Both the position numbers and the translations under genes were made by a program. DNA of 64,000 nt from a virus (lineage: Duplodnaviria > Heunggongvirae > Uroviricota > Caudoviricetes), in IMG/VR virus record IMGVR_UViG_3300025133_000025, one strand, 5' to 3'. Numbering within the stretch: position 1 is the first letter of the stretch; every line of letters begins with the position of its first letter. A model generated the notes under the pieces. The model had not been told where the DNA came from. It saw nothing but the letters and a program-made list of their open reading frames with translations, and ran no database searches. Below are positions 2,943 to 54,909 of this stretch, piece after piece.

Positions 2943-4119
2943 CCGGAACCTCCGTTGTATGCCCGCCGCGCTTAATGTACTTCATAACTAGGTGCTCATT
3001 AAGAAAACTAAGTGCCAATGCATGAGCTTCTGGATCTGTTTTAATTAGTTCCATCCAGCCAGAATGATCGCTGTCACTGTATTGAAATGGAATTCCTTCG
3101 CCTTTGCTTGCACCCTTTTTGTGCAAACGTTTTGGATTTGTTCCACTAATATATCCTTGCTCACGTAATACCGGATACCAAGACTCAATATCACCAATTC
3201 CTTCAGCGAAATAAATTGGAAACTTCATCTGCCTGAAGGGAGGACCGAATCTTGTTTTGATTACTTCTGACCGGCAGACCATCCCTTTTCTCTTTAAGGC
3301 ATTCTCACCGTCTTTTGGTTTAATGCGCTTGCTGTGATGCAATCGTATTCTAACAGAAGCGTAATAAGGAATTGTTTCACCGCCTGGGCTATAGAATTCA
3401 TCCTCACCCATTGCTGCGCCAATTTTATTCTTCAAGTGATTTGTCACAACCAGCGTAACGTTTGCCTTATCAAAGTGTTGCAGTGCCTTAGACATGCCAC
3501 CAGAAATTTGCTTTGCAAACATGAGATTCTTATTCATGTTGAAATCATAATCTGCGTCGTGCTGGGCAGCAGGTTTTGTTGCAGACACACTGTCCCATAC
3601 AATAGTTACAGGTCTGTCATTTCCTGCTGCTCGCTTTGCAATAACCAAATTGATGATCTTCTCAATTGAAACAAAACATTCTTCTAGATTGTTTGGCTGA
3701 AGATATAGGAAGTTATTTTCCCTGTCAACACCGAGCATATCCATAAACTCAAAATTGGCTGCAAACTCTGTATCAATTAAGATAGCCAGTCCACCAGCTT
3801 TTTGAGTGTTGGCCAAGATAACGGCGCCCATAAGCGACTTGCCTGCGCTGTTGAAGCCCGCAATGTCAATTACTTTACCTTCAGGGATGCCGCCATCTGC
3901 GCGATTACTAATAGCATAATCTAGAAGTGTTGATCCTGTTGATATAAACCTCTGCCCCTCAAATGGATCGTCTTTTCTTAGATCGATTGCAAGAGGGCCA
4001 CCCTTTCTTCCCTTGTTCAATGAGGAAATTAAATCATCCAGTTGAAAGCGTGCCTGCGCTTCTAGCGGAGCAAAACCCTTCTCAAAGGCTTCTGCAGCAC
4101 TCATTACATCATCTACCAT
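2932..4119 (-). CDS. recA: RecA/UvsX-like recombinase
   Basis: ISTGSTLLDYAI, GGIPEGKVIDIAGFNSAGKS (Walker A), IDTEFA, IVWDSVSA (Walker B), PGGETIPYYASVRIRL. Confidence 0.95.
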   Translation of the reverse strand: MVDDVMSAAEAFEKGFAPLEAQARFQLDDLISSLNKGRKGGPLAIDLRKDDPFEGQRFISTGSTLLDYAISNRADGGIPEGKVIDIAGFNSAGKSLMGAVILANTQKAGGLAILIDTEFAANFEFMDMLGVDRENNFLYLQPNNLEECFVSIEKIINLVIAKRAAGNDRPVTIVWDSVSATKPAAQHDADYDFNMNKNLMFAKQISGGMSKALQHFDKANVTLVVTNHLKNKIGAAMGEDEFYSPGGETIPYYASVRIRLHHSKRIKPKDGENALKRKGMVCRSEVIKTRFGPPFRQMKFPIYFAEGIGDIESWYPVLREQGYISGTNPKRLHKKGASKGEGIPFQYSDSDHSGWMELIKTDPEAHALALSFLNEHLVMKYIKRGGHTTEVPDVN

Positions 4120-4434: not shown

Positions 4435-4489
4435 CTGTTGGGTCCCCGACCGAGCTCGTCGAAGCCTATGTCGGTCGGGGACCCAACAG
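4435..4489. terminator. Perfect 19-bp inverted repeat just downstream of the SSB gene (terminator or RNA processing/stability hairpin)
   Basis: CTGTTGGGTCCCCGACCGA (4435-4453) and TCGGTCGGGGACCCAACAG (4471-4489), 17-nt loop, 6 nt after the SSB stop. Confidence 0.6.
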
Positions 4490-4495
4490 TTTCTA

Positions 4496-5251
4496 TTATA
4501 GGTTTGCTACTGCAGCCTCAACAGCATCATCTGATCCGGAACCTCGAACAGTCCCTATTGATGTGTCAGTAGCCTTTGCGTCACCGTCGAGGTAATCAGA
4601 AAGGCGCTCCTTAACTTCCTCAGGTGTTGAAAGACCGTAGATTTGCACCAGCGGCTTCAAGCTTTCCATGATTTCGTCAAGATCACGATCATCATCGCCA
4701 TCGATTAATGGTGAATTCTTGCGTGCAAAATCAAGTTCAGTCTTTGGCCAATTCTGGCCAGCTGCTGGATCCTTCGGCGTCAGAGTGACCTTAAGATCGA
4801 TTCCGTCAACAGGATCTTGGACCATTCCATAGTCCTCATCCATCATCTTACCTACGACGTAAGTAAAGTTGGTCTTATTGAGACGGAACCACTTGGCCTC
4901 ACCAGCCTCTTCACCTTCGCGAATAAGAACGGGAGTAAAATAGCTGACCTTGGCTCGAATATCCTTGGCAACTTGCACAGATGCATCATTTCCAGAATCG
5001 TAGAGCTCAGAGACGAATTCACAAATAGCACAAGGCTCATTGTTATTGCGCTTTGGACAGCGAACGGCGCCCTTTCCTACACCATAATGGAAGAAAACTT
5101 CCTCAAATGGGTAACCATCTTCGCCGTATGGAAGAATTCTGACACGCTCTGTCTTATTCTCTGTCGGCTTGTATAGGTCGTTCTGTCGCTTATTGTTGGC
5201 GCGATCAATTGCGCCTTGGAGTCGTGCACGTAGTGCTTCATTCATGCCCAT
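4496..5251 (-). CDS. Single-stranded DNA-binding protein (T4 gp32-like)
   Basis: VRILP, F.HY.VG...VRCP.....PCAICE (Zn site), DP..G.DLKVT, acidic tail; located next to recA. Confidence 0.85.
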   Translation of the reverse strand: MGMNEALRARLQGAIDRANNKRQNDLYKPTENKTERVRILPYGEDGYPFEEVFFHYGVGKGAVRCPKRNNNEPCAICEFVSELYDSGNDASVQVAKDIRAKVSYFTPVLIREGEEAGEAKWFRLNKTNFTYVVGKMMDEDYGMVQDPVDGIDLKVTLTPKDPAAGQNWPKTELDFARKNSPLIDGDDDRDLDEIMESLKPLVQIYGLSTPEEVKERLSDYLDGDAKATDTSIGTVRGSGSDDAVEAAVANL

Positions 5252-5298
5252 GGGTATGTTTCCTTTATGTTATGGGTGTTTGTGTAAATTATTGTTTG

Positions 5299-5685
5299 TT
5301 ATTTATTTATAATTGAGTTGAGCCGTGTATGAAAGTGTCTTAATCGGCCCTTGTGGGTTGTAATAATGCTATTTCTATGTTTTTGCCAGTTTACTATATC
5401 TCCATTGCCCTTAATGGCATTTAATGCGTTTAATGTAAACAGTGTATTTGTTCCACTGTTTCTATGAACCCGAATCATCTCTAAAGGTTCATTTCCTAAA
5501 TCTACTTGCTTTAATGTTTGTTCATCAACATTAAAAGTCAAAGCAAATCGCGTGTCATCCCTATCTGTTGTACCCAATACAAATACTCTTGGTGGAGAAT
5601 ATGTTGTATTGACATAATCTAATGCTGCATCCAGCTCTACTTCAGCATCAACAAATGTGCAAAGTAGCACACCTTGATTCCTCAT
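5299..5685 (-). CDS. Conserved-looking hypothetical phage protein
   Basis: 128 aa; LLCTF...IRVHRNSGTNTLFTLNALN...VNW; SD-like GAGG upstream. Confidence 0.6.
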   Translation of the reverse strand: MRNQGVLLCTFVDAEVELDAALDYVNTTYSPPRVFVLGTTDRDDTRFALTFNVDEQTLKQVDLGNEPLEMIRVHRNSGTNTLFTLNALNAIKGNGDIVNWQKHRNSIITTHKGRLRHFHTRLNSIINK

Positions 5686-5776: not shown

Positions 5777-5995
5777 CTAAGAAATAAGTGCCAAGTAATA
5801 CGCACCAAATTCATCTGCTGTGACACCAACTCCGCCTGCTTCAACAGCTGCGTTATTAGCAATTTGCCTCCAATTCATTGAAGCAATCTCTGCAGCAAGT
5901 TCTTTATGGTTGCCAAGGATTGTTTTTAGCTTCACTGTCTTCTTCAGGTTCGTCCCAGGAACAGACAGTGTAACCATATAACGAGGAGCACTCAC
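5777..5995 (-). CDS. Hypothetical protein
   Basis: 72-aa ORF, ATGA-type overlap with the upstream gene. Confidence 0.5.
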   Translation of the reverse strand: MSAPRYMVTLSVPGTNLKKTVKLKTILGNHKELAAEIASMNWRQIANNAAVEAGGVGVTADEFGAYYLALIS

Positions 5996-6456
5996 AGTTT
6001 TATAACCTCAAATTTATGACCAAGCCCTGTGAGGTGAGCCCTGACGAAATCAAAGGCTTCATTCCCAGAACCGTCATCAACAAGCTTCAAAGCAACTCTG
6101 CCCTCGTGGCTTGGATACTTCCTGACTGTTGTTAAATAGAGATCCAAGATTTCCTTGATGATTAACATACCTCCATAATAAATCGTAGAAGGTGCGATGT
6201 ATACAACAAAGCGGTCAGCGTCGGTTCCAATTGAGTCAGTAATAAATTCAGCAATATTCTTTTGGTTTGCCATCCAGCGCGCTTCGGCGAGCATCATCTC
6301 ACCAACAAAGCCAGGTACAGCTGCGGTTTGCTCTTCAATAAATCCTTGCAGCTCTACTGATACAGAATCAAAGCGCTCTAAATCAAGTGAAAAACTGAAT
6401 TGGGGTGGATCCTTCAAGCTGAAGCCTGGGGTCGCGATGTTTATTACTTGCTCCAT
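5992..6456 (-). CDS. Hypothetical protein
   Basis: 154-aa ORF coupled to neighbours. Confidence 0.55.
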   Translation of the reverse strand: MEQVINIATPGFSLKDPPQFSFSLDLERFDSVSVELQGFIEEQTAAVPGFVGEMMLAEARWMANQKNIAEFITDSIGTDADRFVVYIAPSTIYYGGMLIIKEILDLYLTTVRKYPSHEGRVALKLVDDGSGNEAFDFVRAHLTGLGHKFEVIKL

Positions 6457-8411
6457 AATCTCTTTCTTGCTTCTGCCCGAAACTTTTCAAAGTCGTCAGG
6501 CTTATCGGCACCCATGTCGTACCAGTAGTCGTTAATTACTTCATCCATCACAACAGCATCAGCAAGTTCTCGCATTCCAGCGCTGCGCTTATCATAATGC
6601 TTCTTAAGTTCATCACGCGCTGCTGCAACTGCTGTTTGCAAAATCTTGCGCCGAAACTTTCGAAATGCTTTTAGGCCTTGCAGTTTTTCATATTTTTGAC
6701 TATTAATCAACGTATGAAGATCACGCTGCATGAACTTCTTACTCATGACAATATTCTTGATCAGCTTATTTTTTCTAGCTGCTGGCCAAATATGCGGATG
6801 ATTATCTGTTGTATAACGATCGCCAAGAAGTTGTGGCAGATGCGTTCTAATAAGATGCACTGTTTCAGATTCACGAGCCTTAATTTCAGGCATGTCAGTC
6901 AAATACGCCAGCTCACCAGCCCAACTATCATTGAAACCAGTGAATTTCTTCATTGTAGACGCACGCTGCCGCTCATACTTGTTAATCTGCTTTTCGCCCC
7001 AATCTTTCTTTGCTGTCACTGCATTGTCTCGAATGTGTGTCAGTTCATGAGCGACAATCGCTTCAAAGGATTCGACAAGCGAAGCATGGTCAATGTCATA
7101 AATAACAAGAAGATCGCCAGCAACAATTGAACTATTGAGATTGATACCGATTTTATATTCGCCATCCTCAACACCAGCTGCACCATTTGTTTTTGCAAAA
7201 AGTTTCTCTGGACCGCTTGCTTCTCCAACAAATAAACCAGCCTTGACATAGATCTTTTGGTTCGTTCCCTCAATCTTTTCATCAAAACCAATGGCAACTA
7301 ACGCACGTTCTTCATCACCGCCAACAAGTTCAAGTAAGGTTTTCTCAGCATCACCAATCTTAATTTTGATATAGAGCTTTCGAAGCAGCTCGTTTGTAAT
7401 TTCTTTCACAAAACTCGAATTGATAGGAATGGGACCTTCGGCAAGAAGATTAAGCAAGTTGTGCGAAGCCTCATCCATCTTCTTTTCTTGCTTGGCGAGC
7501 TTGTCAGCTTCGTCCTTCTTCTCACGCTCTTTATCTGATGTGTATAACTTTATACTAAATGTCGTTTTTGTGTCAGCAACAAAGTGGACCTTCCCACCAT
7601 GGACATCCCAGAAATCATCGAATGATCTGAAGAAAAGAATATCCTTCAGGTCGGGATCCTTGGCAGTCATAACCGCGTTTACAGGATCAACAACACCGTG
7701 GCGATCAAGATACATTGTGAATGCCCGGGTAAGCGCCTTGAACACAGCGTCATCCATTCCCAAATCATCATGCCAATATGGGAAACCCTTCTTCATCATG
7801 CCAAGCTTCATTAGCTCTTCAACATGATCAGAATTGAGACCCTCATGCTTAATCATCGTCTGCAACCATGGCTCATCCCTTGATGGCCTTGGAAGATTTG
7901 ACATTATTGATGGCTGCCCAGCGCCAAGATACTTGAATGAGACGTTATAAACAGTGCCATCTTTTTCCTGGATTGTAAAGTCTGATTTCTTACGGCTCTT
8001 CCCGACGTACTTTACAGACCCAGGAATGTAATCAAGGCCCTCAATCTCAAGCTCCCCTGCTTGTGCATCCTTAAGAAAGCGCTCTTCTTTGGCAACACCC
8101 TCAGGCTTACGATTGAGTGGAAGATCGTCGAGGTTCATAATGAGTAATGAAGACGGCGCGAATGTATATTCTTTACTGCCTTTCTTGACTACAACTTTAT
8201 CACCATCAATAACTCTAAGGACGTTGACATCTGACGCAGGAGCCAAGTGGATTTTGTCACCATCATCTGCCCGCCCAACAGTTTCTCTATCATGGCGTGT
8301 CTGAAACTTTACGTCAGGCTTACCCTTACTGTGAATGAACTTCTTGACAGCTCCCCATAACTCACGGTTGCGAAGTGTGTCTACTCGCCTGTTATCTTCG
8401 TTAATCTTCAT
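6444..8411 (-). CDS. Multidomain protein: putative PD-(D/E)xK-like nuclease region plus HExxH zincin metallopeptidase-like region
   Basis: 655 aa; KSDFTI...NVSFK in the N-terminal half; AIVAHELTHIRD followed by YLTDMPEIKARESE in the C-terminal half. Confidence 0.55.
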   Translation of the reverse strand: MKINEDNRRVDTLRNRELWGAVKKFIHSKGKPDVKFQTRHDRETVGRADDGDKIHLAPASDVNVLRVIDGDKVVVKKGSKEYTFAPSSLLIMNLDDLPLNRKPEGVAKEERFLKDAQAGELEIEGLDYIPGSVKYVGKSRKKSDFTIQEKDGTVYNVSFKYLGAGQPSIMSNLPRPSRDEPWLQTMIKHEGLNSDHVEELMKLGMMKKGFPYWHDDLGMDDAVFKALTRAFTMYLDRHGVVDPVNAVMTAKDPDLKDILFFRSFDDFWDVHGGKVHFVADTKTTFSIKLYTSDKEREKKDEADKLAKQEKKMDEASHNLLNLLAEGPIPINSSFVKEITNELLRKLYIKIKIGDAEKTLLELVGGDEERALVAIGFDEKIEGTNQKIYVKAGLFVGEASGPEKLFAKTNGAAGVEDGEYKIGINLNSSIVAGDLLVIYDIDHASLVESFEAIVAHELTHIRDNAVTAKKDWGEKQINKYERQRASTMKKFTGFNDSWAGELAYLTDMPEIKARESETVHLIRTHLPQLLGDRYTTDNHPHIWPAARKNKLIKNIVMSKKFMQRDLHTLINSQKYEKLQGLKAFRKFRRKILQTAVAAARDELKKHYDKRSAGMRELADAVVMDEVINDYWYDMGADKPDDFEKFRAEARKRLWSK

Positions 8412-18184: not shown

Positions 18185-19096
18185 TTACCACTCTTTACGG
18201 AGGTGGCGCTGGAGATCACTCGGCAACTTGGTGGCAAATTTCTTAAGAATCCTAACAAATTGCTCAGGATCATCAAGCGGTTCATCTTTGACATCCATGA
18301 ATGAGGGTTGGGGCCCTGGATATCCAACATACTCAAGATAATCTTCATAATCAGGCCAGCGATCCTCATCATATTCAACTTGGCCTTTAAATTTGAGCCA
18401 ATTTGTCACATCAAAGTGTATCTGAACATCCTTCCTCGAATCCTGCTTATGCTTAAAGATGATAAGTGGGTCGTTTTTCTTGTGGTATTGATTATAATAC
18501 TTCTTCAGGCCCGGCGCTGCCGTGCACCACCTCGTACCCTTGCCAAGATAGCAGGCTGCTGCGTGTGTCTCAGGAATGAAGATCTTCCATTCGTCATCTT
18601 CACCAATAAGATTCATCCCAGCACTTGCATCACCTGCGATTGGGCGAGCAGCCATGTGCTCATGATATTCTTCTTCAGCATCATTGACAATTCTAATAAG
18701 CTCTCCAATACTGGGAATATCGTAAATGTTGTTTTTCTCTAGGATTACATCAACGCCTTGCGCTTTCATTTGATAGAAGATTTCAAGGTGCCCCAGAGCA
18801 TGAGGAAGACTCCTTTCCCAATTTCTGGCAGCTTTTACATCCTTGGTTGCGTGAACAAAACTACCAATTAACCAGTTCAGCGCTTCACCTCTATACTTGT
18901 CTTCAATATCGTGTGGGACTGCATCCTCAATCTCTTGTAGAAAATCCTGATAGAGGTTTTCATACGAACTATGTTCACCCGGCATTTGCTTCAAGCGCAT
19001 CACAGCATTCTTGAACTTTTTACTTTTAAACCGCTGCTCAACCTGACTATACGAAATCTCGTTGAGGAGCTGGAACATGGTTGGAAATGCTGTCAT
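18185..19096 (-). CDS. Leader-bearing protein with WCT-motif domain (paralog of 39000..39944)
   Basis: Start at ATG 19096 after AAAGG: MTAFPTMFQLLNE; core WKIFIPETHAAACYLGKGTRWCTAAPG. Confidence 0.7.
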   Translation of the reverse strand: MTAFPTMFQLLNEISYSQVEQRFKSKKFKNAVMRLKQMPGEHSSYENLYQDFLQEIEDAVPHDIEDKYRGEALNWLIGSFVHATKDVKAARNWERSLPHALGHLEIFYQMKAQGVDVILEKNNIYDIPSIGELIRIVNDAEEEYHEHMAARPIAGDASAGMNLIGEDDEWKIFIPETHAAACYLGKGTRWCTAAPGLKKYYNQYHKKNDPLIIFKHKQDSRKDVQIHFDVTNWLKFKGQVEYDEDRWPDYEDYLEYVGYPGPQPSFMDVKDEPLDDPEQFVRILKKFATKLPSDLQRHLRKEW

Positions 19097-29570: not shown

Positions 29571-29616
29571 AAACGACAAACGCCCTGGAACTTTCATTCC
29601 AGGGCGTTTGTCGTTT
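29571..29616 (-). terminator. Perfect 20-bp hairpin after the major capsid gene
   Basis: AAACGACAAACGCCCTGGAA (29571-29590), 6-nt loop, TTCCAGGGCGTTTGTCGTTT (29597-29616). Confidence 0.8.
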
Positions 29617-35593: not shown

Positions 35594-36193
35594 TTACTCC
35601 TTGCCACGCTTGTGGAAAATTATATTGTTTGCAATCCTGGTGATGCGATCATTTCGCTCTCTTGGCCGCAAGATCCGTTTGCCTTCTGGTAGCACGTATG
35701 CACCGGGTGTTGATGGTTCAGATACTAAATCAAAGCAAATTAATTGGAAATCATCTTGGACTACATCAAAGCCACCAGAGGCTTGTGTCGAACCAACTCC
35801 GCGTGAACTAATTCCTAATACTCCGCCTGCCTTAAGGATTGCCTCAGCAATTTGGCCTGTCGGGGTTCCCATTAGCTTAAGCTTTCCAAAAACTTCATCA
35901 CCTTCCCACCAGACTTCAGTCATCATGTGTGATGCCTTCTGCAAGTTTACAACAGTGTCTTGTGGATGATCAAGCTCTCCATACGCTCTTCGCTCTTGAA
36001 TGGGTGTTTGATAATTTTGAACTTCACGTTCAAGAATTTCACGCGGATACTTGCGCTCATTTGCATTTCCCAAATCAGCATGCTGGCACCGGCCAGAGAG
36101 GATGATGTCACGACCAGCCTCCACATCCTCACGAAGCTTGTCAGCATCATACTCAAGCTGGTAAAATTCGCAGAGGATTTTTCGATCAGCCAT
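35594..36193 (-). CDS. Prohead core protease (T4 gp21-like)
   Basis: N.NERKYPREIL.RE, AYGELDHP, SH, LGISSRGVGS, FDLVSEPSTPGAY. Confidence 0.95.
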   Translation of the reverse strand: MADRKILCEFYQLEYDADKLREDVEAGRDIILSGRCQHADLGNANERKYPREILEREVQNYQTPIQERRAYGELDHPQDTVVNLQKASHMMTEVWWEGDEVFGKLKLMGTPTGQIAEAILKAGGVLGISSRGVGSTQASGGFDVVQDDFQLICFDLVSEPSTPGAYVLPEGKRILRPRERNDRITRIANNIIFHKRGKE

Positions 36194-38999: not shown

Positions 39000-39944
39000 T
39001 TATGCATGACTGAAGTCGATTGCATTCACATCAAAGTCGTGCTCAAGATAGTCTTTTACTTTTCTTGGCAGCTTCGGCATGCGCTTTAAGATATGCACCA
39101 TCGTCTTCACAACTTGAAATGCTACAGGGCGATCATTTACGTCGCTGAACTGTGGACCCTGGCCTTCTTCATGCTGTCCGTGATCTTCGTACCATTGACT
39201 ATAATCACCGCCGGAATACAACCCGTAGTCAATATACTGTCCTCGACGAGGGGGCCCGTCAGAAGGAATGGCAAAGTGAAACTGCAGATCCTTCTCTTCA
39301 TCTTTCTTATGCTTGAAGATGATAAGAGGGTCGTCCTCGCTGTGATACTCTTCGTAGTAATTGAGACCCGGCGCTGCTGTGCACCACTTCGTATTTTGCC
39401 CAAGCTTGCAGGCGGCAGCTTTATTCTCAGGGATGAAGATCTGCCACTCGGGCGTTTCTCCGATCAGATTCAAGCCCTCGGCCGCAAGGGTGGGATTAAC
39501 TTTGCCAGCTCTATGGTTCGCTAGCTTGACAACGACATCCTGCATGTCATCCATGAAAGCAGCTACATCGGTATACCGATAGATGTCACGCTCATCAAGT
39601 AGATGATCTAAGCCCGCTTCCTTTGTCTGGTAGAACGTCTCAATGTCACTCACAAGATCGACGTAGATGTCAATTCCGCCGTGCTTCGCGTTCATATGCT
39701 TCCCGAGCTCGCCAGAGATGAAGATGCTGATCGCCCAATTCAGCGCCTCAGCTTTTGATGCCTCCGGAATGTCTTCAGGAACGAGACCCTTGACCATCAC
39801 AACAACTTCACCAGGCGTAGTTTCGAGAGCACCTGGCAGCTTTACATGCTTTTGAATAGCACGCCGGAACTTCTTGCCCTCAAAGCGTTGTTCTACCTGC
39901 TGCATCGTAACTTCGAGCAACAGGTTCGAGATGGTCGGAAACAT
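39000..39944 (-). CDS. Leader-bearing protein with WCT-motif domain (paralog of 18185..19096)
   Basis: MFPTISNLLLE; WQIFIPENKAAACKLGQNTKWCTAAPG. Confidence 0.7.
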   Translation of the reverse strand: MFPTISNLLLEVTMQQVEQRFEGKKFRRAIQKHVKLPGALETTPGEVVVMVKGLVPEDIPEASKAEALNWAISIFISGELGKHMNAKHGGIDIYVDLVSDIETFYQTKEAGLDHLLDERDIYRYTDVAAFMDDMQDVVVKLANHRAGKVNPTLAAEGLNLIGETPEWQIFIPENKAAACKLGQNTKWCTAAPGLNYYEEYHSEDDPLIIFKHKKDEEKDLQFHFAIPSDGPPRRGQYIDYGLYSGGDYSQWYEDHGQHEEGQGPQFSDVNDRPVAFQVVKTMVHILKRMPKLPRKVKDYLEHDFDVNAIDFSHA

Positions 39945-39948
39945 GCCT

Positions 39949-41724
39949 CTATTTGCCCGAAATGTTTAAGCTTTCATCAATACCAAATGCATCATCATCA
40001 TCCAGTTCAAGCTCTTCAATTTGTTGTTCTGGACGGCTTCTGGACAGCTCTGGCATGCCTTTAGCAATACTTTCAAGGAGTGTCGAATGCTTCTTGATTT
40101 GGCGTTCGCCGAGTGATGCTTGTACAAGGCCACCAATATCAACATTAAACATATCGCGATCAACTTCTGGGAATGCAACAGAGTGATTACTTTGGCGGCG
40201 AGGACCAGAGGACTTCCGCTTATCATGCCCAGATAATTCTTCAAGCTCAGAATCGTCGTAGATGTGACCATCAGTTAAGCTGACTGCTTCCTCTTCCTTC
40301 TTAGGCTTCTCTTCAGGCTTTACTTCCTCAGGATTCTCTTTCTCATCCTGAGGAGCTTCCATACTTTCAAGCTCAAGCTCAAACATCCTATCATCCTTTA
40401 AACGATTTTGAATTCCTTCCTGCACATTGCGGGGGATGAAGAAGATATTATCATACTGCCACTGCTTGTCAAAGAGTCCTTCACCGGCCTGGCCAGCAAC
40501 TTCCATCTTTGTCCTGAGGAGTTCAAGTTGCTGCATCTCGTAAATCTTTGACGGGGACGTCATGTCAATTTCAAAATTGAAGAGGGCGTCGCCTGTGTAC
40601 CCAAGGATGAAAAGGTGAATGATTGCAATTCGTGTTAATTCACTAATAATGCTTCGTTGGATTCTGCCAATTGTTCTGCCGAAGCGAATATCTTCCTGGG
40701 CAAGTGTTGACTTTGCACCTAGATCTTCTTCATAGCCAAGGTAACTCTTTGGAATCTTGAGTGCCGCAAACAACTTGCTTTGAATGTATTGCACATCTTC
40801 AATATCACCTGTGAACTGGCCTCCAGGGAGTGTTTCAATTCGTGATGATTTATCGCCGCGGACAGGAACAAAGTAATCCTCATCTACGGAAAGTGGGTTG
40901 TAGCGCAGATCAACGCGCCCAGTTGAACTGTCGACAACCTGTGAACGCTTAAGGGCTGACTTTGCGCGCTCCATAAATGCCGGAACCTTCTCAGGCTCAA
41001 CATTTCCTACGTCAATATAGAAGACACGGCGCTCAGGTGAGCGGATGATACGATAGACAAGCATGGCATCTTCAATGAGAAGAAGCTGGCGCCAGATGCG
41101 GCGGGCAGGTTCAATTACTGACGTACCATAGGGAAGGAACACATCATTACCAAGAACGCGGAAGTGCGCAACCTGCCACGGCTGCAGCACACGGTTTCCC
41201 ATCGTTACCCAACGGAAACGATATGCAAATGGATCCTTGGGATCGTAGCCTTCTTCACGCTCAATTTCATTAATTGGAATTGGAACAGCTTGCAAGAGAC
41301 CGTTGTGCTCGTTCACATCAAGGTACAGCATCTGATCGCCGTACTTGCACATATTACGAGTCCAACCCCAAAGCTGGAAGTCGAGGTTCAGAATGTCACC
41401 GAAAAGCTGTTCGAGGATCAGGCGAATATCTTCATCTTGAGACTTAATCTGGATGATTCTGCCGTGAGGATCTGGAACGCATGTTTCATCAGCGTAGATG
41501 TCAAGACCTGAAGCAAGCTCCGGCGTCATCTCCATCTCGGCATAGTCGTTGTAGCGCGCCATTCGTTCAATTTGGCCTACGTTCGAAACTGTACTGTACG
41601 TGTTGTATGATAGAGAGCTAAAGCCGGAAGAATCAGACGGTTGGTACGGAAGGCGCTGGATCCTGTGGCGAACCACTGGTCCAGACTTAAAGAGCCTGGT
41701 CAATTGTTTGAAAACGTCAGCCAC
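39949..41724 (-). CDS. Portal protein (T4 gp20-like)
   Basis: LDIYADE, RNMCKYGD, LIEDAMLVYRIIRSPERRVFYIDVGN, EDYFVPVRG, IETLPGG, AALKIPKSYL. Confidence 0.97.
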   Translation of the reverse strand: MADVFKQLTRLFKSGPVVRHRIQRLPYQPSDSSGFSSLSYNTYSTVSNVGQIERMARYNDYAEMEMTPELASGLDIYADETCVPDPHGRIIQIKSQDEDIRLILEQLFGDILNLDFQLWGWTRNMCKYGDQMLYLDVNEHNGLLQAVPIPINEIEREEGYDPKDPFAYRFRWVTMGNRVLQPWQVAHFRVLGNDVFLPYGTSVIEPARRIWRQLLLIEDAMLVYRIIRSPERRVFYIDVGNVEPEKVPAFMERAKSALKRSQVVDSSTGRVDLRYNPLSVDEDYFVPVRGDKSSRIETLPGGQFTGDIEDVQYIQSKLFAALKIPKSYLGYEEDLGAKSTLAQEDIRFGRTIGRIQRSIISELTRIAIIHLFILGYTGDALFNFEIDMTSPSKIYEMQQLELLRTKMEVAGQAGEGLFDKQWQYDNIFFIPRNVQEGIQNRLKDDRMFELELESMEAPQDEKENPEEVKPEEKPKKEEEAVSLTDGHIYDDSELEELSGHDKRKSSGPRRQSNHSVAFPEVDRDMFNVDIGGLVQASLGERQIKKHSTLLESIAKGMPELSRSRPEQQIEELELDDDDAFGIDESLNISGK

Positions 41725-41805: not shown

Positions 41806-42234
41806 TCAATCAAAATCAAGTTCATCTTCAACTTCGCGCCCAATATCACTTGCACTTTTTGCAAAGTTAAAATCTCTTCGCAGAATATCAATAGCAGCCT
41901 TCATGTCATACTGTGATTTTGCAAATGTTGCATACATCTTTAAAAAATAAAAGACCTCTTCTATTTCTTCACCATCACGTACTGCTTCAATTAAGTTCTC
42001 TATTCCATCAATGAGATCAACATCATTATCACGATATTTTGAATCTGGAAAATCAAGTGTAAACATGCCGTGCGTTAATCTTTTTACAAGCATAAGGAGC
42101 TGCTCAAGCTCTTGAATAACAATGCTAGGATCTCTTCTTATTTTTTCTGCTACTTTATTAATCGCACTTTCAACGTGGCGGGCGCTAAACTCGTCAACTA
42201 CTTCTGTCAGTTTTTGTATTGTTGGAAACTTCAC
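41806..42234 (-). CDS. Leader-bearing hypothetical protein
   Basis: GTG start overlapping the upstream stop; MKFPTIQKLTE; helical and acidic. Confidence 0.65.
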   Translation of the reverse strand: MKFPTIQKLTEVVDEFSARHVESAINKVAEKIRRDPSIVIQELEQLLMLVKRLTHGMFTLDFPDSKYRDNDVDLIDGIENLIEAVRDGEEIEEVFYFLKMYATFAKSQYDMKAAIDILRRDFNFAKSASDIGREVEDELDFD

Positions 42235-43363
42235 TTTATATCCCCTGAATCAGATGGGCGCTTTACACCTAACCTACTTCTGATATAGTACACATTTGCA
42301 AAACGCACGCCCATTTGCTCTGCAACTTCTTTGTCTGTCAATGTTTCGTCAAGCATGCGTGGATCATTTACAAGCTTACTTGTTTTTCCGAGGGGCTTCT
42401 TGATTGGTGGTCTCTTAACTTTTAACATATCACGCTTATAAAAGACTGTTGCAAGCGGAAGACCAATCTCTATTGACACTTCTTCGTCAGATAGATCTTC
42501 ATCTGTTAGAAAATCATCATCGTCATCAAAGATATCGATAATTTCGCTTGGCTCTTTTGGCTGTCTTGCACGGGGGCCGGCATGGCCAAATTCAATTCCC
42601 AGCTTTCTGCGGCGTGCCCTTACGCGGCTAAGTGTAATTGTGTCAAGCTCGCCTGGAAATCTAGTGCGTAATTTTGCAATTACCTCAGCATGCCCTACAA
42701 GTTTATCTTTAAGAATTGAATCATTAAACCACTTAGGAGTATATGGCTTAAAACCTGCTGCTTTTCGTAAATTCTTGATTGTTGCAGGTGCTACGTCATA
42801 CTTGGCTGCAAGCTCAACTGCACTTACCCTTCCATTCATAAAGTGAGGATCTGCCTTAAGCTTCTTATGGAATGCAACAATCTCTTTTCTGCTCATTCGC
42901 CTAGGCTCAATACCTAATTCTTTACGATAGATACTAACTCTTGATGCATCAATGCCATACCTTTGTCCGAGTTCTTTATTAGTAATATCACGATTTCTAA
43001 TATCTGGATCATTCTTAAGAATTGGTCCCATTGAACTCTTAAAGCCTTTAACACCTAACCTCTGTCGAATTCTTAAAACTGTAGCAGAATTAATACCATA
43101 GCGAGCTGCAATTGTCTTATGCATGACATTCTTGTCATAGATATCCGGATCTTTTCTAAGCTTGGCTATTACACCTGGGCCACCTCTTTTAAGGGGAGCA
43201 AGACCTGCAGCACGGCGATACTTCGAAACACTAGATAAATCCATGTTGTATCTATTTGCCAGCTCTTTGTGTGAAACGTCTGGATTTAAAAAGTCAGGAT
43301 CAGCTTGGACCTTTTCTTTCTTTGAAGCCTCAAGCAGCAATTTTTGTATTGTTGGAAACTTCA
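42211..43363. repeat. 23-bp exact direct repeat encoding the leader (42211-42233 and 43341-43363); 16 bp of it recur at 8551-8566
   Basis: TTTTTGTATTGTTGGAAACTTCA at both sites, 1130 bp apart; ATTGTTGGAAACTTCA also at 8551. Confidence 0.9.
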
Positions 43364-43364
43364 T
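42231..43364 (-). CDS. Leader-bearing tandem helix-turn-helix repeat protein
   Basis: MKFPTIQKLLLE followed by about 6-7 repeats of DP....vshkeLA.rY.....tV...R...G. Confidence 0.75.
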   Translation of the reverse strand: MKFPTIQKLLLEASKKEKVQADPDFLNPDVSHKELANRYNMDLSSVSKYRRAAGLAPLKRGGPGVIAKLRKDPDIYDKNVMHKTIAARYGINSATVLRIRQRLGVKGFKSSMGPILKNDPDIRNRDITNKELGQRYGIDASRVSIYRKELGIEPRRMSRKEIVAFHKKLKADPHFMNGRVSAVELAAKYDVAPATIKNLRKAAGFKPYTPKWFNDSILKDKLVGHAEVIAKLRTRFPGELDTITLSRVRARRRKLGIEFGHAGPRARQPKEPSEIIDIFDDDDDFLTDEDLSDEEVSIEIGLPLATVFYKRDMLKVKRPPIKKPLGKTSKLVNDPRMLDETLTDKEVAEQMGVRFANVYYIRSRLGVKRPSDSGDIK

Positions 43365-43373
43365 AATCAGCCC

Positions 43374-43676
43374 TCATCCAATCAACCACGAAAAGTCGAC
43401 ATCAAATTTCTCGCCGTATACGCTCTTAGTCTTCAAGTGACTTTGTGATGGCTTTCTTGGAGCAAATTCATCAGCTTTATAACCTGTCACATCCTGAATG
43501 GTATTCGTCGACAGCGTCATGCCTGCCAGCATTCCTTCAACTTCACGGCTATCGTTAATTAGCACAATTCTATCCCTCAACCACAAGGTTTGTGAATAAG
43601 CTACGATTAAGTCATCATGATAGCCGCGCATGTGCTGCGGTTTGTTGTTGAGCCAAATGAACGTTTCAGTTCTTCA
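43374..43676 (-). pseudogene. Diverged duplicate of the terminase 3' end
   Basis: Aligns with 44819-45115 (offset 1438-1439); encodes the same C-terminal ~100 aa with many synonymous changes and a 1-nt deletion (AAACG vs AAGACG) near its 5' edge. Confidence 0.9.
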
Positions 43677-43744
43677 GTCTGGTGTACACCAACGTAGATC
43701 TTTCCATTGACAGTGTTGGTAGTCTGGTAGACGAGGTAGTGCAT
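43677..43744 (-). pseudogene. N-terminal fragment of a GIY-YIG (Seg-like) homing endonuclease
   Basis: MHYLVYQTTNTVNGKIYVGVHQT, TGATG-coupled to the upstream gene, then abruptly joined to the terminase duplicate. Confidence 0.8.
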
Positions 43745-44778
43745 CAAGCGTTTTCCCAAGCAAACTCTTCTGTGTGGTTCTGTTCGCAAGCCTGCATAAA
43801 TGCGTCAAGTGTTGGGGTACTGCTCATGTTCGTAAGAAACTGCTCCTCTGTTAACCACCACGCTGGAATTGAACTATCAGCAGTACCCCAGCCAACATCT
43901 TCGCCAGCTGCGATTGCGTTCTTTGCAGCAGCTACATCCTGCTCTGGAAGCTTGTAGCTCATGTGATCGATAACAATGAACCACGTCAATTCTTCAGCAT
44001 TTTCTTGCATCAATTCTTCAACATCACGAAAAAATGCGTCTGTGATCAGAGTGATAACTTCACCCTCATCAAGCTGCACACCAAACGCAGCATATAGTGC
44101 TTGGAACAAACCCGTGAACGCTTTCTGGCTTTTGGCCCAGGAAGCTGCATCTGGTGCTGGAAAGTCGTCAAACTTTCCAGAGACCACTAGCTGCTGCAAT
44201 TTTTTTATAAAGGCCGCAGTCGGCGGGAGGATGTCGGCTTTTCTATTGGCTAAGCCCGGGCGCTTCCTTGAATAAACAGTTTCTTCATCGTCAGAATAAC
44301 CAAGGTGCTTCGCAGGCGCTTCTTTGCCCAGCATCTGCAGATTCGCATCTTCAATCGTACTGGCCAGCAACTCCATAAATTGCTGATCCTGCTCTTTAAT
44401 ACTGCTGATCACGTACACGTACGCTTGCTCTGGAATTTGTTTATAGTATGAATGGAAAACTTGGGGAGTTCCCGGCGTTTCAGTCACAGTCACAATTGAA
44501 GTCCACATCTTTTTATAATCACTTGTCCAGCCCGGAAAGTAATCAATAAACAGCTTGCTGTACTTAAAAGCGTGTAAATCATGATCTTCTACGTTAGCAT
44601 ACACTGCCCGCTTTTGCACACCCACTCGGCTGCGCATAGGCCCAGTGTTAACATGCTCACCAGAAACGGGGGGGTGCTGTGTTACTCCGCTGGCGCGATA
44701 ACGTGAAACAAACTGCCGCAGTGTGAAATCAACCTGTGTGGCTTCTAGTAGCATTCTCATCGTTGGTAAATATTTCAT
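43744..44778 (-). CDS. Leader-bearing hypothetical protein
   Basis: MKYLPTMRMLLE; SD GGAGG; lies between the two terminase-end copies. Confidence 0.7.
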   Translation of the reverse strand: MKYLPTMRMLLEATQVDFTLRQFVSRYRASGVTQHPPVSGEHVNTGPMRSRVGVQKRAVYANVEDHDLHAFKYSKLFIDYFPGWTSDYKKMWTSIVTVTETPGTPQVFHSYYKQIPEQAYVYVISSIKEQDQQFMELLASTIEDANLQMLGKEAPAKHLGYSDDEETVYSRKRPGLANRKADILPPTAAFIKKLQQLVVSGKFDDFPAPDAASWAKSQKAFTGLFQALYAAFGVQLDEGEVITLITDAFFRDVEELMQENAEELTWFIVIDHMSYKLPEQDVAAAKNAIAAGEDVGWGTADSSIPAWWLTEEQFLTNMSSTPTLDAFMQACEQNHTEEFAWENA

Positions 44779-44805
44779 GCAATCCTCCGAAATCCTCGAC
44801 TATGC

Positions 44806-46500
44806 TCAGCCAGTCGAGATAAGCCATGAAAAGTCGATATCGAATTTTTCCCCATATACACTCTTGCGCTTCAACTGCGCTTGTGATGGCTTCTGTGGGG
44901 CAAACTCATCTGACTTATAGCCTGTCATGTCAGTAACAGTATTAGTTTCGAGTGTCATTCCGGCCAGCATTCCTTCGACTTCTCTTGAATCATTAATTAA
45001 TACAATTCTATCACGCAGCCACAAGGTTTGGGAATAAGCTACGATTAAATCATCATGGTAGCCCCGCATGTGCTGGGGTTTGTTGTTGAGCCAAATGAAC
45101 GTCTTCAGTTCTTCAAGCAGTCTTGGCGGGAGCTTAGGAACAATTTCATTTTCTTCATCATCCCCCGATTCAATCCACTCTTGCATGCGTGCAACAATAA
45201 GAGGACGCACCGTTGAAGACATTGTGAAGCCTGGAACAAGGTCTTTTCGGTGTGTCCCATACTTCACAAGAACATGCTCGGCAGGCTTGCCTTTGACTGT
45301 ATAAATAAGGGCAGGATAACGCAGTTCTTCAAGCTTCTCAACAGTTGTCCAGCCAATCCCTGTGTTCTCAACAGAGATTGCACAGCCACCATACTCATGC
45401 CCAATATCATATAGGAGGTGCCCAAATGTTGTTGGCTTCAATCTACCCTTGAAATCAGCAACAACCTGTCCCATCTCAGCATCAAGAATGGAAAATGATG
45501 AATAATCTTCTCCGTCACCTCTGGCGACATCAGAGCCAATTACATACTTATGCCCTGGCTTATATGTTTCGTAAACCCAAATCCTGCCGTCACGGCCTTC
45601 TGTATGCCACTTATCAATTGCGTGTGCTTGTAGGACTTCAAGTCTTTGACCAGAAATAACTGTATCACCTGAAAATAGGAAGTTGCACTCATATTCCTGT
45701 GCAATCTTCTTCTTGGAGAAGTTGCGGGTCTCCGTCTTGAACCATTCTTCATCACGATCAGGATGTTCATGCCACATAAGTGGCCGAAGCGCAACGAAAT
45801 CATTTCTGCCCGCCACACAATCTTCGTACATCTTGTGGAACATGCCACCGACGCCGAAGGGAGTGCTGAACACAATGGCTCGACCACCTGTTGAAATTGT
45901 TGGGTATGCTGACGTCCAGATTGTGTCGAGATTTGGAATCTTTGCCGCCTCATCGATAACAAGAAGTGACGTCGATTCAGAGGTGCCCGCATTGTCTGTG
46001 GGTGCCATGGCCTTAACAGTTGAACCGTTTGGCAACTCGATTGTGTGAACGTTATCTGCTACGAGCTTGACATCACCCCGACGCTTCTTATCGTCATAAG
46101 AGATGCCAAAGGCGCGCTTGAATTCATATGGCAGTGCCTTCAGCGCGTACTTGATCTTACGAATAAGACCCTTAGCAGCTGCGGCATCCTTAGAGATAAT
46201 AATGACAACTTGGTCACGCTTGAACAGCATGAGCCATGTGACGTACATTGCAAGCAGCGTTGAAAAGCCAAGCTGGCGTGCCTTCAGGATGATAGCAAAG
46301 CGGTTCTCATCGAACAGCTGTGTGGCTTCTTCCTGGAATTTGAACATGTCAAAGCGGATCTTACCTCGCACTGGATGCGAGATGTACCCGTACTTCTTCA
46401 TGAAATAGATGGCTCCTGCGCTGTCATACGCATCACCCTCAGCCGGTTGTCTTGTGCACCGACGAAGCTCCTCTGTCAGGACCTTCTTAGTGAATGCCAT
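44806..46500 (-). CDS. terL: Terminase large subunit (T4 gp17-like)
   Basis: ILKARQLGFST (Walker A), LLVIDEAA (Walker B), STPFG, QEYECNF, GSDVARGDGEDYSSF, RGYHDDLIVA. Confidence 0.97.
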   Translation of the reverse strand: MAFTKKVLTEELRRCTRQPAEGDAYDSAGAIYFMKKYGYISHPVRGKIRFDMFKFQEEATQLFDENRFAIILKARQLGFSTLLAMYVTWLMLFKRDQVVIIISKDAAAAKGLIRKIKYALKALPYEFKRAFGISYDDKKRRGDVKLVADNVHTIELPNGSTVKAMAPTDNAGTSESTSLLVIDEAAKIPNLDTIWTSAYPTISTGGRAIVFSTPFGVGGMFHKMYEDCVAGRNDFVALRPLMWHEHPDRDEEWFKTETRNFSKKKIAQEYECNFLFSGDTVISGQRLEVLQAHAIDKWHTEGRDGRIWVYETYKPGHKYVIGSDVARGDGEDYSSFSILDAEMGQVVADFKGRLKPTTFGHLLYDIGHEYGGCAISVENTGIGWTTVEKLEELRYPALIYTVKGKPAEHVLVKYGTHRKDLVPGFTMSSTVRPLIVARMQEWIESGDDEENEIVPKLPPRLLEELKTFIWLNNKPQHMRGYHDDLIVAYSQTLWLRDRIVLINDSREVEGMLAGMTLETNTVTDMTGYKSDEFAPQKPSQAQLKRKSVYGEKFDIDFSWLISTG

Positions 46501-53042: not shown

Positions 53043-53591
53043 TCAGCAGAGTGCTAGGGCAAACTTTGCAATGACATATGCATCAGTCATATCGTAAGTC
53101 CCACCTTTTACATTGCCGGACCGGGTGTATTCCCACTCCATAGGATAATTGTACATCTCAATATCCTTCATTGTAAACAGGCGGCCAGCTTCTTTGATAT
53201 GAATCCCTGCTTTTTTATCTTTCACAATGCCAAATTGGCGACGAGCTTCATTCTCTTTGATTGTTAGCAATTCAATGCCATAACTTTCCCAGAGCGCTTG
53301 TGAAAGCATTCCGTGGAACATCCAAAGAAGTGTGATTGTATTGATACTGCCGAAGCCTGTGCGCTTCAGAGGGACCGCTGTGTAGAACTTGACGGGTTCT
53401 GTATCGCCGGGGCGCGCATCTCGAATGAGATCGTCGATCTTCTCTGTGATAGCGCTGATCTTGCCGAACAGCGTCTTGTGCTTCCCTAGCTTGATGAATC
53501 CCATGCCGACGAGTTCATCGCCTTCAGTGAATCTGCGAAAGACAGTGTAGCCAGTACAGGATGTACTGACGTCGAGTCCGATGAGTAGCAT
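53043..53591 (-). CDS. RuvC-like Holliday junction resolvase
   Basis: LIGLDVSTSCTG first-strand motif; DMTDAYVIA terminal motif. Confidence 0.8.
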   Translation of the reverse strand: MLLIGLDVSTSCTGYTVFRRFTEGDELVGMGFIKLGKHKTLFGKISAITEKIDDLIRDARPGDTEPVKFYTAVPLKRTGFGSINTITLLWMFHGMLSQALWESYGIELLTIKENEARRQFGIVKDKKAGIHIKEAGRLFTMKDIEMYNYPMEWEYTRSGNVKGGTYDMTDAYVIAKFALALC

Positions 53592-54377
53592 TTCATTCTC
53601 ACTTTCACTTTAATAAAGGCCGCGTGACTTATAGGGATACACAGTTGGCATGACCCAGTAATCGTAGTCAATGAAAACCAGCTCCTTTGTCCGTGGGCGC
53701 TTCATTACATTCCCGGGACTCACGTCAGCCCAGAACAGACTAGACGCCTCAAGGAAATCTACCATGGTCTGCAACGTGCCTGCTTTGGCACGCAGCTTTT
53801 CAATCTTATCTAGACGATCTTGGTGCGGTAGAGGGTCATTCCAATTCGACGGCCCAGTGTAGCTAAGAACTTCTGTATCATCGTCAAGCAACCCAAAAAG
53901 AAAAGCAACCTCTTTCTGCTCGGCAGAATTTAACGGCTCAAGAAATTCAGCTACAACACACGGTGTCATGTGATCGCCAAAGCCAATTGGCAAAAAGAAG
54001 ACTCGATAGAACTGGATGAGGTGCTTGCTCAAATTGCTTGGCAGCGCTCCCTTAAGCCTTTTATACTCAGCAATCTCTCTCTTGATCGTGTCAAGCTCAA
54101 GCCGATACGCATAGTGAGTTTTGATTGCAACCTGCCGGCCCTGCTGGTCAGTCGCTGACCAAACAGTTCCGTGAAATCCGTCACCTACTTCTACAGCACC
54201 AACATATCCCTCCTGCGCCAGTGCCTCTACAACATCTGCCTTGGACACGTTGTCTGTATAATCAGACTCAAGTAAATACGACATTGTGGGGAACATTAGA
54301 TGTCGTGCCTCAGCTTGAAAAGCACTGAAGCCAGTACAGGAAGTACTGACGTCGAGTCCGATGAGTAGCATTGCATT
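53549..54377. repeat. 49-bp direct repeat of the ruvC 5' end (53549-53597 and 54329-54377) flanking the kinase gene
   Basis: AGCCAGTACAGGA(T/A)GTACTGACGTCGAGTCCGATGAGTAGCATT(T/G)CATT; 2 mismatches; 780 bp apart. Confidence 0.92.
53610..54296 (-). CDS. Leader-bearing protein kinase-like protein
   Basis: Probable ATG 54296 (MFPTMSYLLE). VGDGFHGTVW Gly-loop, VAIK, helix-C E, VVAEFL hinge, WADVSPGNVM catalytic loop, FIDYD. The frame also extends upstream into the ruvC duplicate. Confidence 0.75.
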   Translation of the reverse strand: MFPTMSYLLESDYTDNVSKADVVEALAQEGYVGAVEVGDGFHGTVWSATDQQGRQVAIKTHYAYRLELDTIKREIAEYKRLKGALPSNLSKHLIQFYRVFFLPIGFGDHMTPCVVAEFLEPLNSAEQKEVAFLFGLLDDDTEVLSYTGPSNWNDPLPHQDRLDKIEKLRAKAGTLQTMVDFLEASSLFWADVSPGNVMKRPRTKELVFIDYDYWVMPTVYPYKSRGLY

Positions 54378-54483
54378 AATCTCTTTCACCTTTGACAGTT
54401 ATAACTTCAGCAGGGATTGGCTGTGTAGGCTTTTGCTGGCTTGATTGCGCTTCGCTTAACAGTTGGCTGACAGTTGGAAACAT
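54376..54483 (-). CDS. Leader-bearing micro-ORF (35 aa)
   Basis: Hand translation MFPTVSQLLSEAQSSQQKPTQPIPAEVITVKGERD*; SD GAGGG upstream. Confidence 0.6.
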   Translation of the reverse strand: MFPTVSQLLSEAQSSQQKPTQPIPAEVITVKGERD

Positions 54484-54498: not shown

Positions 54499-54909
54499 CT
54501 AATTACCCATGAAATCATCATCATCATGTTGTGGCCAGAAGCCAGGAAGCTCAGCACCTCGGCCCCAATCAGGATCTTGCAGCGTTGCTGCAACCTTCTT
54601 GGCCCAGCGCAGCTTTGGAATTTTGTCATAAATGCCAGTAGTCCCAGAGTGACCAGTCCACTCAGTGTCAACAACAGATTTAACCTTGGGGTCCTTCATG
54701 ATGTCAATCATGAGATTGCCAATCCATTCCTCTTGCCACTCATCTGTTCCATGCGCAGCTTTGATTTCCCAGTGGTCAGGAACATCACGTTCACCAACAT
54801 CGTATCCGCCTGGGCCAGCTGCAGACACACCGTAGCTGCCATAGTCAATCGTCACTGTGCTGTTTGCATCAGCACTTTCTAGTAAAAATTTCATCGTTGG
54901 ATATTTCAT
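54499..54909 (-). CDS. Leader-bearing hypothetical protein
   Basis: MKYPTMKFLLE; SD AGGAG. Confidence 0.7.
   Translation of the reverse strand: MKYPTMKFLLESADANSTVTIDYGSYGVSAAGPGGYDVGERDVPDHWEIKAAHGTDEWQEEWIGNLMIDIMKDPKVKSVVDTEWTGHSGTTGIYDKIPKLRWAKKVAATLQDPDWGRGAELPGFWPQHDDDDFMGN

Follow-up and report, generated by a model that had tools for sequence, protein, structure and literature searches.

How does a phage whose large terminase gene (terL) is intact come to carry a second, diverged terL 3′ end just downstream, with an unrelated gene lodged between the two? The question is raised by a stretch of 64,000 nucleotides (nt) from IMG/VR virus record IMGVR_UViG_3300025133_000025, hereafter called the window, the source of which is an uncultured marine T4-like myovirus of ~176–179 kb (contigs of 175,726 and 179,159 nt). 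The minus strand carries every gene in the window and, read along it, the working 3′ end of terL (tail A) is followed by an ORFan here called the cargo gene, by the stump of a GIY-YIG homing endonuclease gene, by the second terL end (tail B, or copy B), and then by two further genes, HTH377 (a protein with helix-turn-helix, HTH, repeats) and g142, before the T4-type portal gene is reached (Table 1). The genes between terL and portal, each of which opens with the same N-terminal leader, are referred to below as the cassette array. Coordinates are those of the whole window; L003 to L024 denote contigs, and P0001 and P0132 proteins, from the comparison sequences. Taken as a whole, the locus suggests that copy B is probably a non-functional scar, left by microhomology-mediated unequal recombination between related phages.

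The extent of the duplication was established in two ways: a repeat search found 43381–43664 to be a direct repeat of 44819–45102 (284 nt, 80% identity, spacing 1438), and self-blastn of the window aligned 44824–45115 with 43386–43676 (80.8% over 292 nt, E 6e-73); no internal repeat in the 64 kb is larger. Both searches bear out an earlier reading of the locus, made from the letters alone and hereafter the sequence-only reading, in which such a repeat had been seen to bracket the gene at 43744..44778. The two tails end at the same stop codon, save for a 6-nt indel (...WLISTG-stop versus ...WLIG-stop), and the longest exact run that they have in common is 26 nt. The two extra terminal codons of tail A (..ISTG-stop) are found neither in tail B nor in the relatives L003 and L004. 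The same layout is present on every contig found: it is 100% identical in a 175,726-nt ENA contig (L021/L023) and in a 17.8-kb Logan contig of SRR5701579 (L022), and the 85-amino-acid (aa) product of tail B is encoded exactly on three contigs of 1.1–1.2 kb (L018–L020) that cross the end of the cargo gene, tail B and the next gene, although, as several of the matching assemblies may stem from related samples, these are independent in assembler and not in population. Contig names carry k141, and the Logan k-mer is ~31; since the shared run of 26 nt is shorter than these assembly k-mers, a graph artefact is very unlikely, and the other assemblies do not point to the assembly artefact that the sequence-only reading had named as a refutation of its account.

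The differences between the two tails are those of a gene under constraint. Across 94 aligned codons there are 57 nt differences (15/6/36 by codon position), with 20 in the first 50 codons, where 0 amino-acid changes occur, and 37 in the last 44, where there are 10; this is the pattern of protein-identical start, third-position changes and ~10 later replacements that had been described from the letters. Synonymous differences greatly outweigh non-synonymous ones (pS 0.626, pN 0.092, Fisher p = 4e-16), and by NG86 the non-synonymous and synonymous rates are dN 0.10 and dS 1.3 (dN/dS ~0.08), on a scale where full-length terL and that of its closest relative, L003, give dN 0.12 and dS 1.9. With L003 and L004 as outgroups, tail B is ancestral at at least 4 polarisable sites, in addition to having the usual ...G-stop end, and derived at only 1–2 sites, whilst tail A is derived at at least 4 sites and has a 2-codon insertion. 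The low dN/dS, the Fisher test and the ancestral states retained all favour the earlier proposal that copy B is a diverged allele under terL-type purifying selection, rather than a decaying local tandem copy. Judged by this substitution pattern, copy B evolved inside a working terL and was captured recently: there is no excess amino-acid change or relaxation in B, and it would therefore have been dead only briefly relative to the A/B divergence. Third-position identity is 0.62 between A and B and ~0.45–0.5 between either tail and L003, which places the probable donor of B nearer than L003. A search for a donor terL that resembles copy B more than the resident allele does, as the sequence-only reading had envisaged, recovered none in a collection of 5.8 billion proteins, where only the L003 terL tail, at 70% aa, was found. 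A sliding-window comparison of the window terL with L003 terL showed no break in identity at codon 463 of the kind that would mark a conversion tract.

What joins tail B to its present neighbourhood is the remnant of the endonuclease gene, the ATG of which overlaps the cargo stop codon (TGATG). Against Pfam the stump gives weak matches (GIY-YIG, E 0.044; SegE_GIY-YIG, E 0.027), and it is 88% identical to the N-terminus of P0132, a complete GIY-YIG/NUMOD3 protein of 228 aa, which continues ..HQTEDLNDGYLGSG... Residues 1–23 alone precede terL sequence: the complete GIY-YIG catalytic domain and the DNA-binding region are absent, and ~200 endonuclease codons are gone. In the junction region P0132 reads ..VGVHQTEDLNDGY.. 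and terL ..LLEELKTF.., and after HQT the sequence switches from endonuclease into terL ..EELK-TFIW... The join falls within GAAGAnCTGAA, which stands in the same phase in both genes (..QTEDLN.. in P0132, ..LEELK.. in terL; the endonuclease DNA of L024 has GAAGAT.TGAA), and 1 nt is missing just past the microhomology, with the result that the frame is broken. On its sequence, such a junction is the signature of a microhomology-mediated illegitimate join. A programmed frameshift at this point was considered and dropped, as there is no slippery motif and the change is a plain 1-nt loss. The contig with the full-length endonuclease relative, L024, has an unrelated context and is uninformative on the original neighbourhood of the gene.

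The cargo gene had been taken in the sequence-only reading for an incoming, integrated piece, an interpretation that comparison with L003 does not sustain. Cargo is 75% identical at the nucleotide level to L003 3633–4667 (dN 0.16, dS 2.1, dN/dS 0.08) and, on these rates, is a real gene under purifying selection. Its dS relative to L003 (2.1) matches those of terL (1.9) and portal (1.9), and the L003 homologue has a terL-tail relic before it and a stump of the same endonuclease after it; the linkage of terL, cargo and endonuclease therefore appears to be old, with cargo having accompanied the terL lineage since the split from L003. More recent are the junction with tail B and the genes that follow it. 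As to its nature, cargo had no match in Pfam or PHROGs, a search among 1.84 billion representatives matched only itself, and exact look-up of its 338-aa variant returned nothing on record. The Atlas yielded no feature match and a model of pLDDT 0.33, and AlphaFold2 with two sequences reached pLDDT 34, so that no fold is predictable.

Relatives of this phage are few. At the nucleotide level the region matches none of 50,697 phage records, the best cultured relative by terL protein is Flavobacterium phage immuto (35%), and terL scans of IMG/VR and JGI metagenomes recovered only relatives of 27–38% identity. Only one close relative is on record, L003 (terL 82% aa), whose layout recurs in a second assembly, and one intermediate relative, L004/L005 (terL 53%). 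In L004/L005 the portal starts 16 nt past terL, and in L006, L011 and L012, which are more distant, portal likewise comes straight after terL. Three genes plus the scar lie between terL and portal in the window, against 8, in a different order, in L003; common to both arrays are cargo, the HTH-repeat protein (377 vs 516 aa) and g142/g135, the latter two standing in opposite order in the two phages.

L003 is without a long copy of the terL tail and has two short relics before other cassettes. The first (3589–3635, 35–47 nt, ..RFDVDFSWLVG-stop) lies directly before the cargo homologue; the second (5260–5306, 47 nt, 89% to its own terL end) lies directly before g135 and is fused to a 92–100% duplicate of the first ~150 nt of the HTH gene (upstream region plus ~42 codons), with which it overlaps in the 12 nt TATGGTGTTGAT. 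L003 carries four instances of the string GGGATAG-CAGAT-ATGAARTTTCC (final terL codon, then stop, spacer and leader), including a perfect 50-nt tandem copy, and the L003 stump of the same endonuclease, behind cargo, is cut differently (4667–4816, 17 N-terminal residues plus ~30 others). Counting window and L003 together, a fragment of terL tail stands before a cassette at three independent junctions, and microhomology is demonstrable at two. Two further details of L003 were noted. At 2989–3088 the perfect 50-nt tandem duplication spans a terL-stop-like/spacer/leader junction and leaves a headless extra leader before g173. A 28-nt inverted repeat (26/28; 1789–1816 and 2314–2341) places the terL site IEELKTFIW, where tail B begins, in reverse within the first cassette gene, g286, both mismatches being synonymous in the terL frame; this inverted copy may be filler DNA from a break at the site, or may mark a nuclease target.

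The history that best accounts for these features would begin with two related phages in co-infection, a left parent with the order terL(A)-cargo-endonuclease-... and a right parent with the order terL(B)-HTH377-g142-portal. One unequal exchange would join the B-allele terL 3′ end to codon 23 of the endonuclease gene behind cargo, and its product would have a whole terL on the left, the cassettes of the second phage on the right and, between them, the terL tail from ~codon 463 as dead weight. Only products with a complete terL at the left and a complete portal at the right would be viable, so that exchanges which duplicate would be those that survive, at the price of a terL-tail scar; exchanges of this kind appear to have recurred in the lineage, and their repetition would build and reshuffle the leader-tagged array between the two genes. 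The reading of copy B as a scar accords with its internal ATG, which has no ribosome-binding site and stands downstream of a broken frame, and with a second independent case in the window, in which the 5′ end of a 182-aa gene is duplicated (described below with the leader-tagged genes). The layout had earlier been attributed to a single-crossover integration, and to that extent the topology fits, but a linear unequal crossover gives the same topology; the junction, a microhomology inside the endonuclease gene, fits unequal crossover with one event fewer than integration of a circle, although the data are compatible with both. Recombination between the copies would by geometry, as had been predicted, delete cargo and give a chimeric terL tail, but no deleted or circular form is among the records.

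As to what set the exchange in motion, an endonuclease break in the terL tail of the right parent, repaired by copying from the left parent, is put forward tentatively as a possible trigger; since the arrays to the right are not alike, a microhomology would then have served to complete the repair. The inverted copy of the tail B start site in an L003 cassette is an odd supporting detail for such a break. Several observations weigh against this account of the locus. Firstly, neither parental arrangement is on record, and the two-parent scenario is reconstructed from its product alone. Secondly, the only terL that resembles tail B is that of L003, at the 70% given above, and L003 is equidistant from tails A (69% nt) and B (67% nt), so that the native tail is not singled out. 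Thirdly, a dN/dS of 0.08 would also be expected of a small gene that still functions. Finally, the endonuclease is found at just one of the three scars, which makes its causal role uncertain.

Among the alternatives, the one that survives best, while unlikely, is a 'home and rescue' element of the mORF (mobile endonuclease ORF) type: a mobile unit of cargo, a GIY-YIG endonuclease and a spare terL tail (A) would have inserted into the resident terL where the enzyme cuts, supplying a diverged replacement tail and pushing the native tail B downstream, and the endonuclease would later have been lost by a microhomology deletion running from codon 24 into tail B. Fungal mitochondrial mORFs with a carried-along gene C-terminus are described for atp6 of Allomyces macrogynus and for atp6, atp9, cox2 and nad3 of Glomus, and the order of the hybrids there is gene core, inserted C-terminus, endonuclease and native C-terminus (PMC3630166), which the order at this locus matches. 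As in the fungal cases, one 3′ end completes an intact essential gene, a diverged duplicate of that end follows shortly after it, homing-endonuclease sequence (here the stump) separates the two, and divergence between the copies is taken to indicate horizontal origin. The upstream of the two diverged terL ends is in frame with the gene core, and what survives of the endonuclease, a 23-codon stump cut off in its 5′ part, lies on the side expected for a mORF. The more ancestral states and the usual ending of tail B are as expected of a native tail, the unit of tail relic, cargo and stump recurs in L003 in another context, and the 28-nt inverted copy in the neighbouring L003 cassette hints at a recurrent break site. 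Against such an element it must be said that two events are needed (an insertion, and later a deletion that stops precisely at a microhomology), whereas a single one is enough; that no displaced tail comes after the L003 stump, which abuts the next leader gene; that the two other tail relics, both in L003, have no adjoining endonuclease; and that neither tail is closer to the sister phage. The locus also departs from the fungal pattern in that the gene is a phage packaging gene, in that a 1-kb passenger lies between tail and endonuclease, and in that only 23 endonuclease codons remain, with the 5′ part, and not the 3′ end, abutting the downstream tail.

A further view, which is decidedly improbable, would make the terL tail a dedicated docking point of the cassette array, as a recombination-based counterpart of the integron. 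Genes for proteins that are packaged into the capsid and ejected would enter beside terL, each entry supplying or exposing a fresh terL tail, with older tails and cassettes pushed towards the portal and nuclease breaks at ..EELKTFIW.. driving capture. That site is the start of tail B in the window, and recurs as the 28-nt inverted filler in L003.

It is very unlikely that copy B is instead a working small gene, whose 85-aa terL C-terminal peptide would serve, for example, in portal binding or modulation of packaging. Its 85 codons are open, dN/dS is ~0.08, the B branch carries no surplus of changes, and gene callers predict the open reading frame (ORF), as 85 or 63 aa. Yet its ATG has no Shine-Dalgarno sequence before it and stands just downstream of the frame break; the fragment begins partway through the last conserved nuclease-domain motif (..MRGYHDD..) and so could not be expected to fold as that domain; and its 90% cluster holds only the sequence of this phage, in the two called lengths (85 and 63 aa). 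The sequence-only reading had held that its own account would fail if relatives carried both copies as a stable second small gene: none carries one, and in L003 the equivalent tails have been whittled to relics of 35–47 nt.

Duplication of the terL end in situ within one genome, followed by divergence, is more improbable again. The repeat is direct, with its copies just 1438 nt apart, and both the window and L003 carry young local duplications of 87–100% identity, but a dead copy at dS 1.3 should have dN/dS near 1, rather than 0.08 with 0 amino-acid changes in 50 codons, and the sequences past the two copies are unrelated (cargo in one case, the HTH protein in the other), with the join inside an endonuclease gene. 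Least credible of all is an assembly chimera of two co-occurring strains, to which metagenomic material and a 26-nt exact run common to both alleles might lend themselves, but which would not yield an identical layout from different assemblers, including short contigs across cargo, stump, tail B and next gene, nor a stump/tail junction that has no source but real reads.

Free-standing GIY-YIG endonucleases of T-even phages (Seg and Mob) cut a neighbouring conserved gene and co-convert its flanks. The present locus resembles these in having a GIY-YIG gene between phage genes and beside a conserved essential gene, with exchange during co-infection as the presumed setting; it differs in that only a dead stump remains and, as normal homing leaves no duplication, the structure would be an aberrant product of repair. 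A second parallel is provided by the hyperplastic regions of T4-type phages and their PeSL-mediated modular shuffling (Arbiol et al. 2010, PMC2839356): here too, the differences between the window, L003 and L004 indicate that ORFan cassettes are gained, lost and reordered at short repeats between conserved T4-like genes, and excision of a mini-circle is the predicted reverse reaction in both. Unlike the PeSL system, there are no promoter/stem-loop cassettes; the repeats are coding (N-terminal leader and terL tail), and joins occur at microhomologies of 11–12 nt. A search for PeSL-like promoter and terminator units found 11 promoter-like sites (8.7 expected) and 4 terminator-like sites (4.0 expected), none of which flanks the cassettes; the mechanism of Arbiol et al. 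therefore applies by analogy only.

The leader that opens every array gene, M(K)(F)PT[IM]xx[LM]L.E, is found on at least 10 ORFs in the window (minus-strand starts at 54909, 54483, 54296, 46682, 44778, 43364, 42234, 39944, 19096 and 8567) and on 6 in L003. At least 7 of the window ORFs lie outside the array, including the gene just past portal. Between the adjacent, unrelated genes g142 and HTH377 the leader DNA is identical at 25/26 nt (42208–42233 vs 43338–43363). Internal head proteins of T4 are directed to the prohead core by a short capsid targeting sequence, after which gp21 cuts N-terminal propeptides after Glu (PMC3012670, PMC5694885). By analogy, the leader is probably a capsid-targeting signal, and the products of the array genes are probably packaged and ejected. 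As with the T4 internal proteins (IPI-III, Alt), unrelated proteins have in common a leader of ~12 residues ending [LI]-x-E, genes for a gp21-family protease and a gp20-type portal lie close by, and the locus is highly variable between relatives. In contrast to T4, the leader sequence itself is unrelated, and the array lies between terL and portal.

Some further features of the leader-tagged genes may be recorded. The second case of duplication mentioned above concerns the 5′ end of the 182-aa gene (designated ruvC in the sequence-only reading, and starting MLLIGLDVSTSCTG..), which is present at 53537–53611 and 54317–54392 (76 nt, 87–90%); the 76-nt copy lies upstream of a leader-tagged kinase-like gene and its reading frame continues into that gene, leaving a cassette bracketed by a piece of its conserved neighbour. 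The leader-tagged 314-aa gene past portal (39272–39472) and its leader-tagged paralogue of 317 aa, 20 kb away (18412–18615), are 72% identical over these segments. The repeats of HTH377 are of the kind seen in the DNA-binding tails of homing endonucleases, and its PHROG matches to HNH/homing endonucleases cover the HTH parts only. Elsewhere in the window, long imperfect palindromes lie between genes at 29571–29616 (46 nt, 87%) and 4435–4489 (55 nt, 80%), and may be terminators or hairpin elements. In distant relatives, interruptions of ~0.9–1 kb were seen in the portal match (L012:12111–13012) and in the terL match (L015:4946–5937), which may represent inserted mobile elements (intron, intein or endonuclease).

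Table 1. Features of the terL–portal region, with window coordinates and the evidence for each assignment
Feature	Position	Strand	Evidence or remark
terL, large terminase, 564 aa, intact, T4-type	44806..46500	-	PF03237 Terminase_6N E 8.6e-11; phrog_2 E 1.3e-42; 82% aa to P0001 in L003
Tail A, working terL 3′ end, codons ~463-564, ending ...FDIDFSWLISTG and stop	44806..45115	-	Repeat searches, alignment
7-bp hairpin (CTCGACT / AGTCGAG) across the terL stop codon, then GGAGG ribosome-binding site of the cargo gene	44795..44818	-	Sequence reading
Cargo, 344-aa ORFan with N-terminal leader MKYLPTMRMLLE	43744..44778	-	Between tails A and B
GIY-YIG homing endonuclease stump, first 23 codons, MHYLVYQTTNTVNGKIYVGVHQT	43676..43744	-	phrog_314 E 7.2e-10
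Junction microhomology GAAGAACTGAA, 11 nt	43665..43675	-	Common to endonuclease and terL, same codon phase
45-codon ORF, endonuclease stump plus out-of-frame terL sequence	43607..43744	-	ORF list
Tail B, displaced/foreign terL 3′ end, 96 codons in terL frame from 43664	43374..43676	-	81% nt, 89% aa to tail A
85-codon ORF in tail B, from internal Met, without Shine-Dalgarno sequence	43374-43631	-	ORF list
HTH377, 377-aa protein with leader MKFPTIQKLLLE and 6-7 helix-turn-helix repeats; start 9 nt past tail B stop	42231..43364	-	L003 homologue of 516 aa, 5798-7348
g142, 142-aa leader protein, GTG start, (M)KFPTIQKLTE	41806..42234	-	Homologue of L003 g135
T4 gp20-type portal, right-hand anchor of the cassette array	39949..41724	-	PF07230 E 3e-70
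T4 gp21-type prohead protease, presumed leader processor	35594..36193	-	PF03420 Peptidase_S77 E 4e-30

The main value of this locus is the view that it gives of how a leader-tagged cassette array grows behind terL. If copy B is the scar that it appears to be, it records, base by base, how a phage enlarges an arsenal of probably injected proteins whilst leaving two essential neighbours undamaged. An endonuclease gene between two diverged ends of a host gene is mainly a pattern of fungal mitochondria, here extended, with the endonuclease reduced to a stump, to phage packaging genes. Chimeric or duplicated terL tails can occur in phages of this type, a point of consequence both for terL-based phylogeny and for gene calling, and the 85-aa ORF of tail B should not be annotated as a gene.

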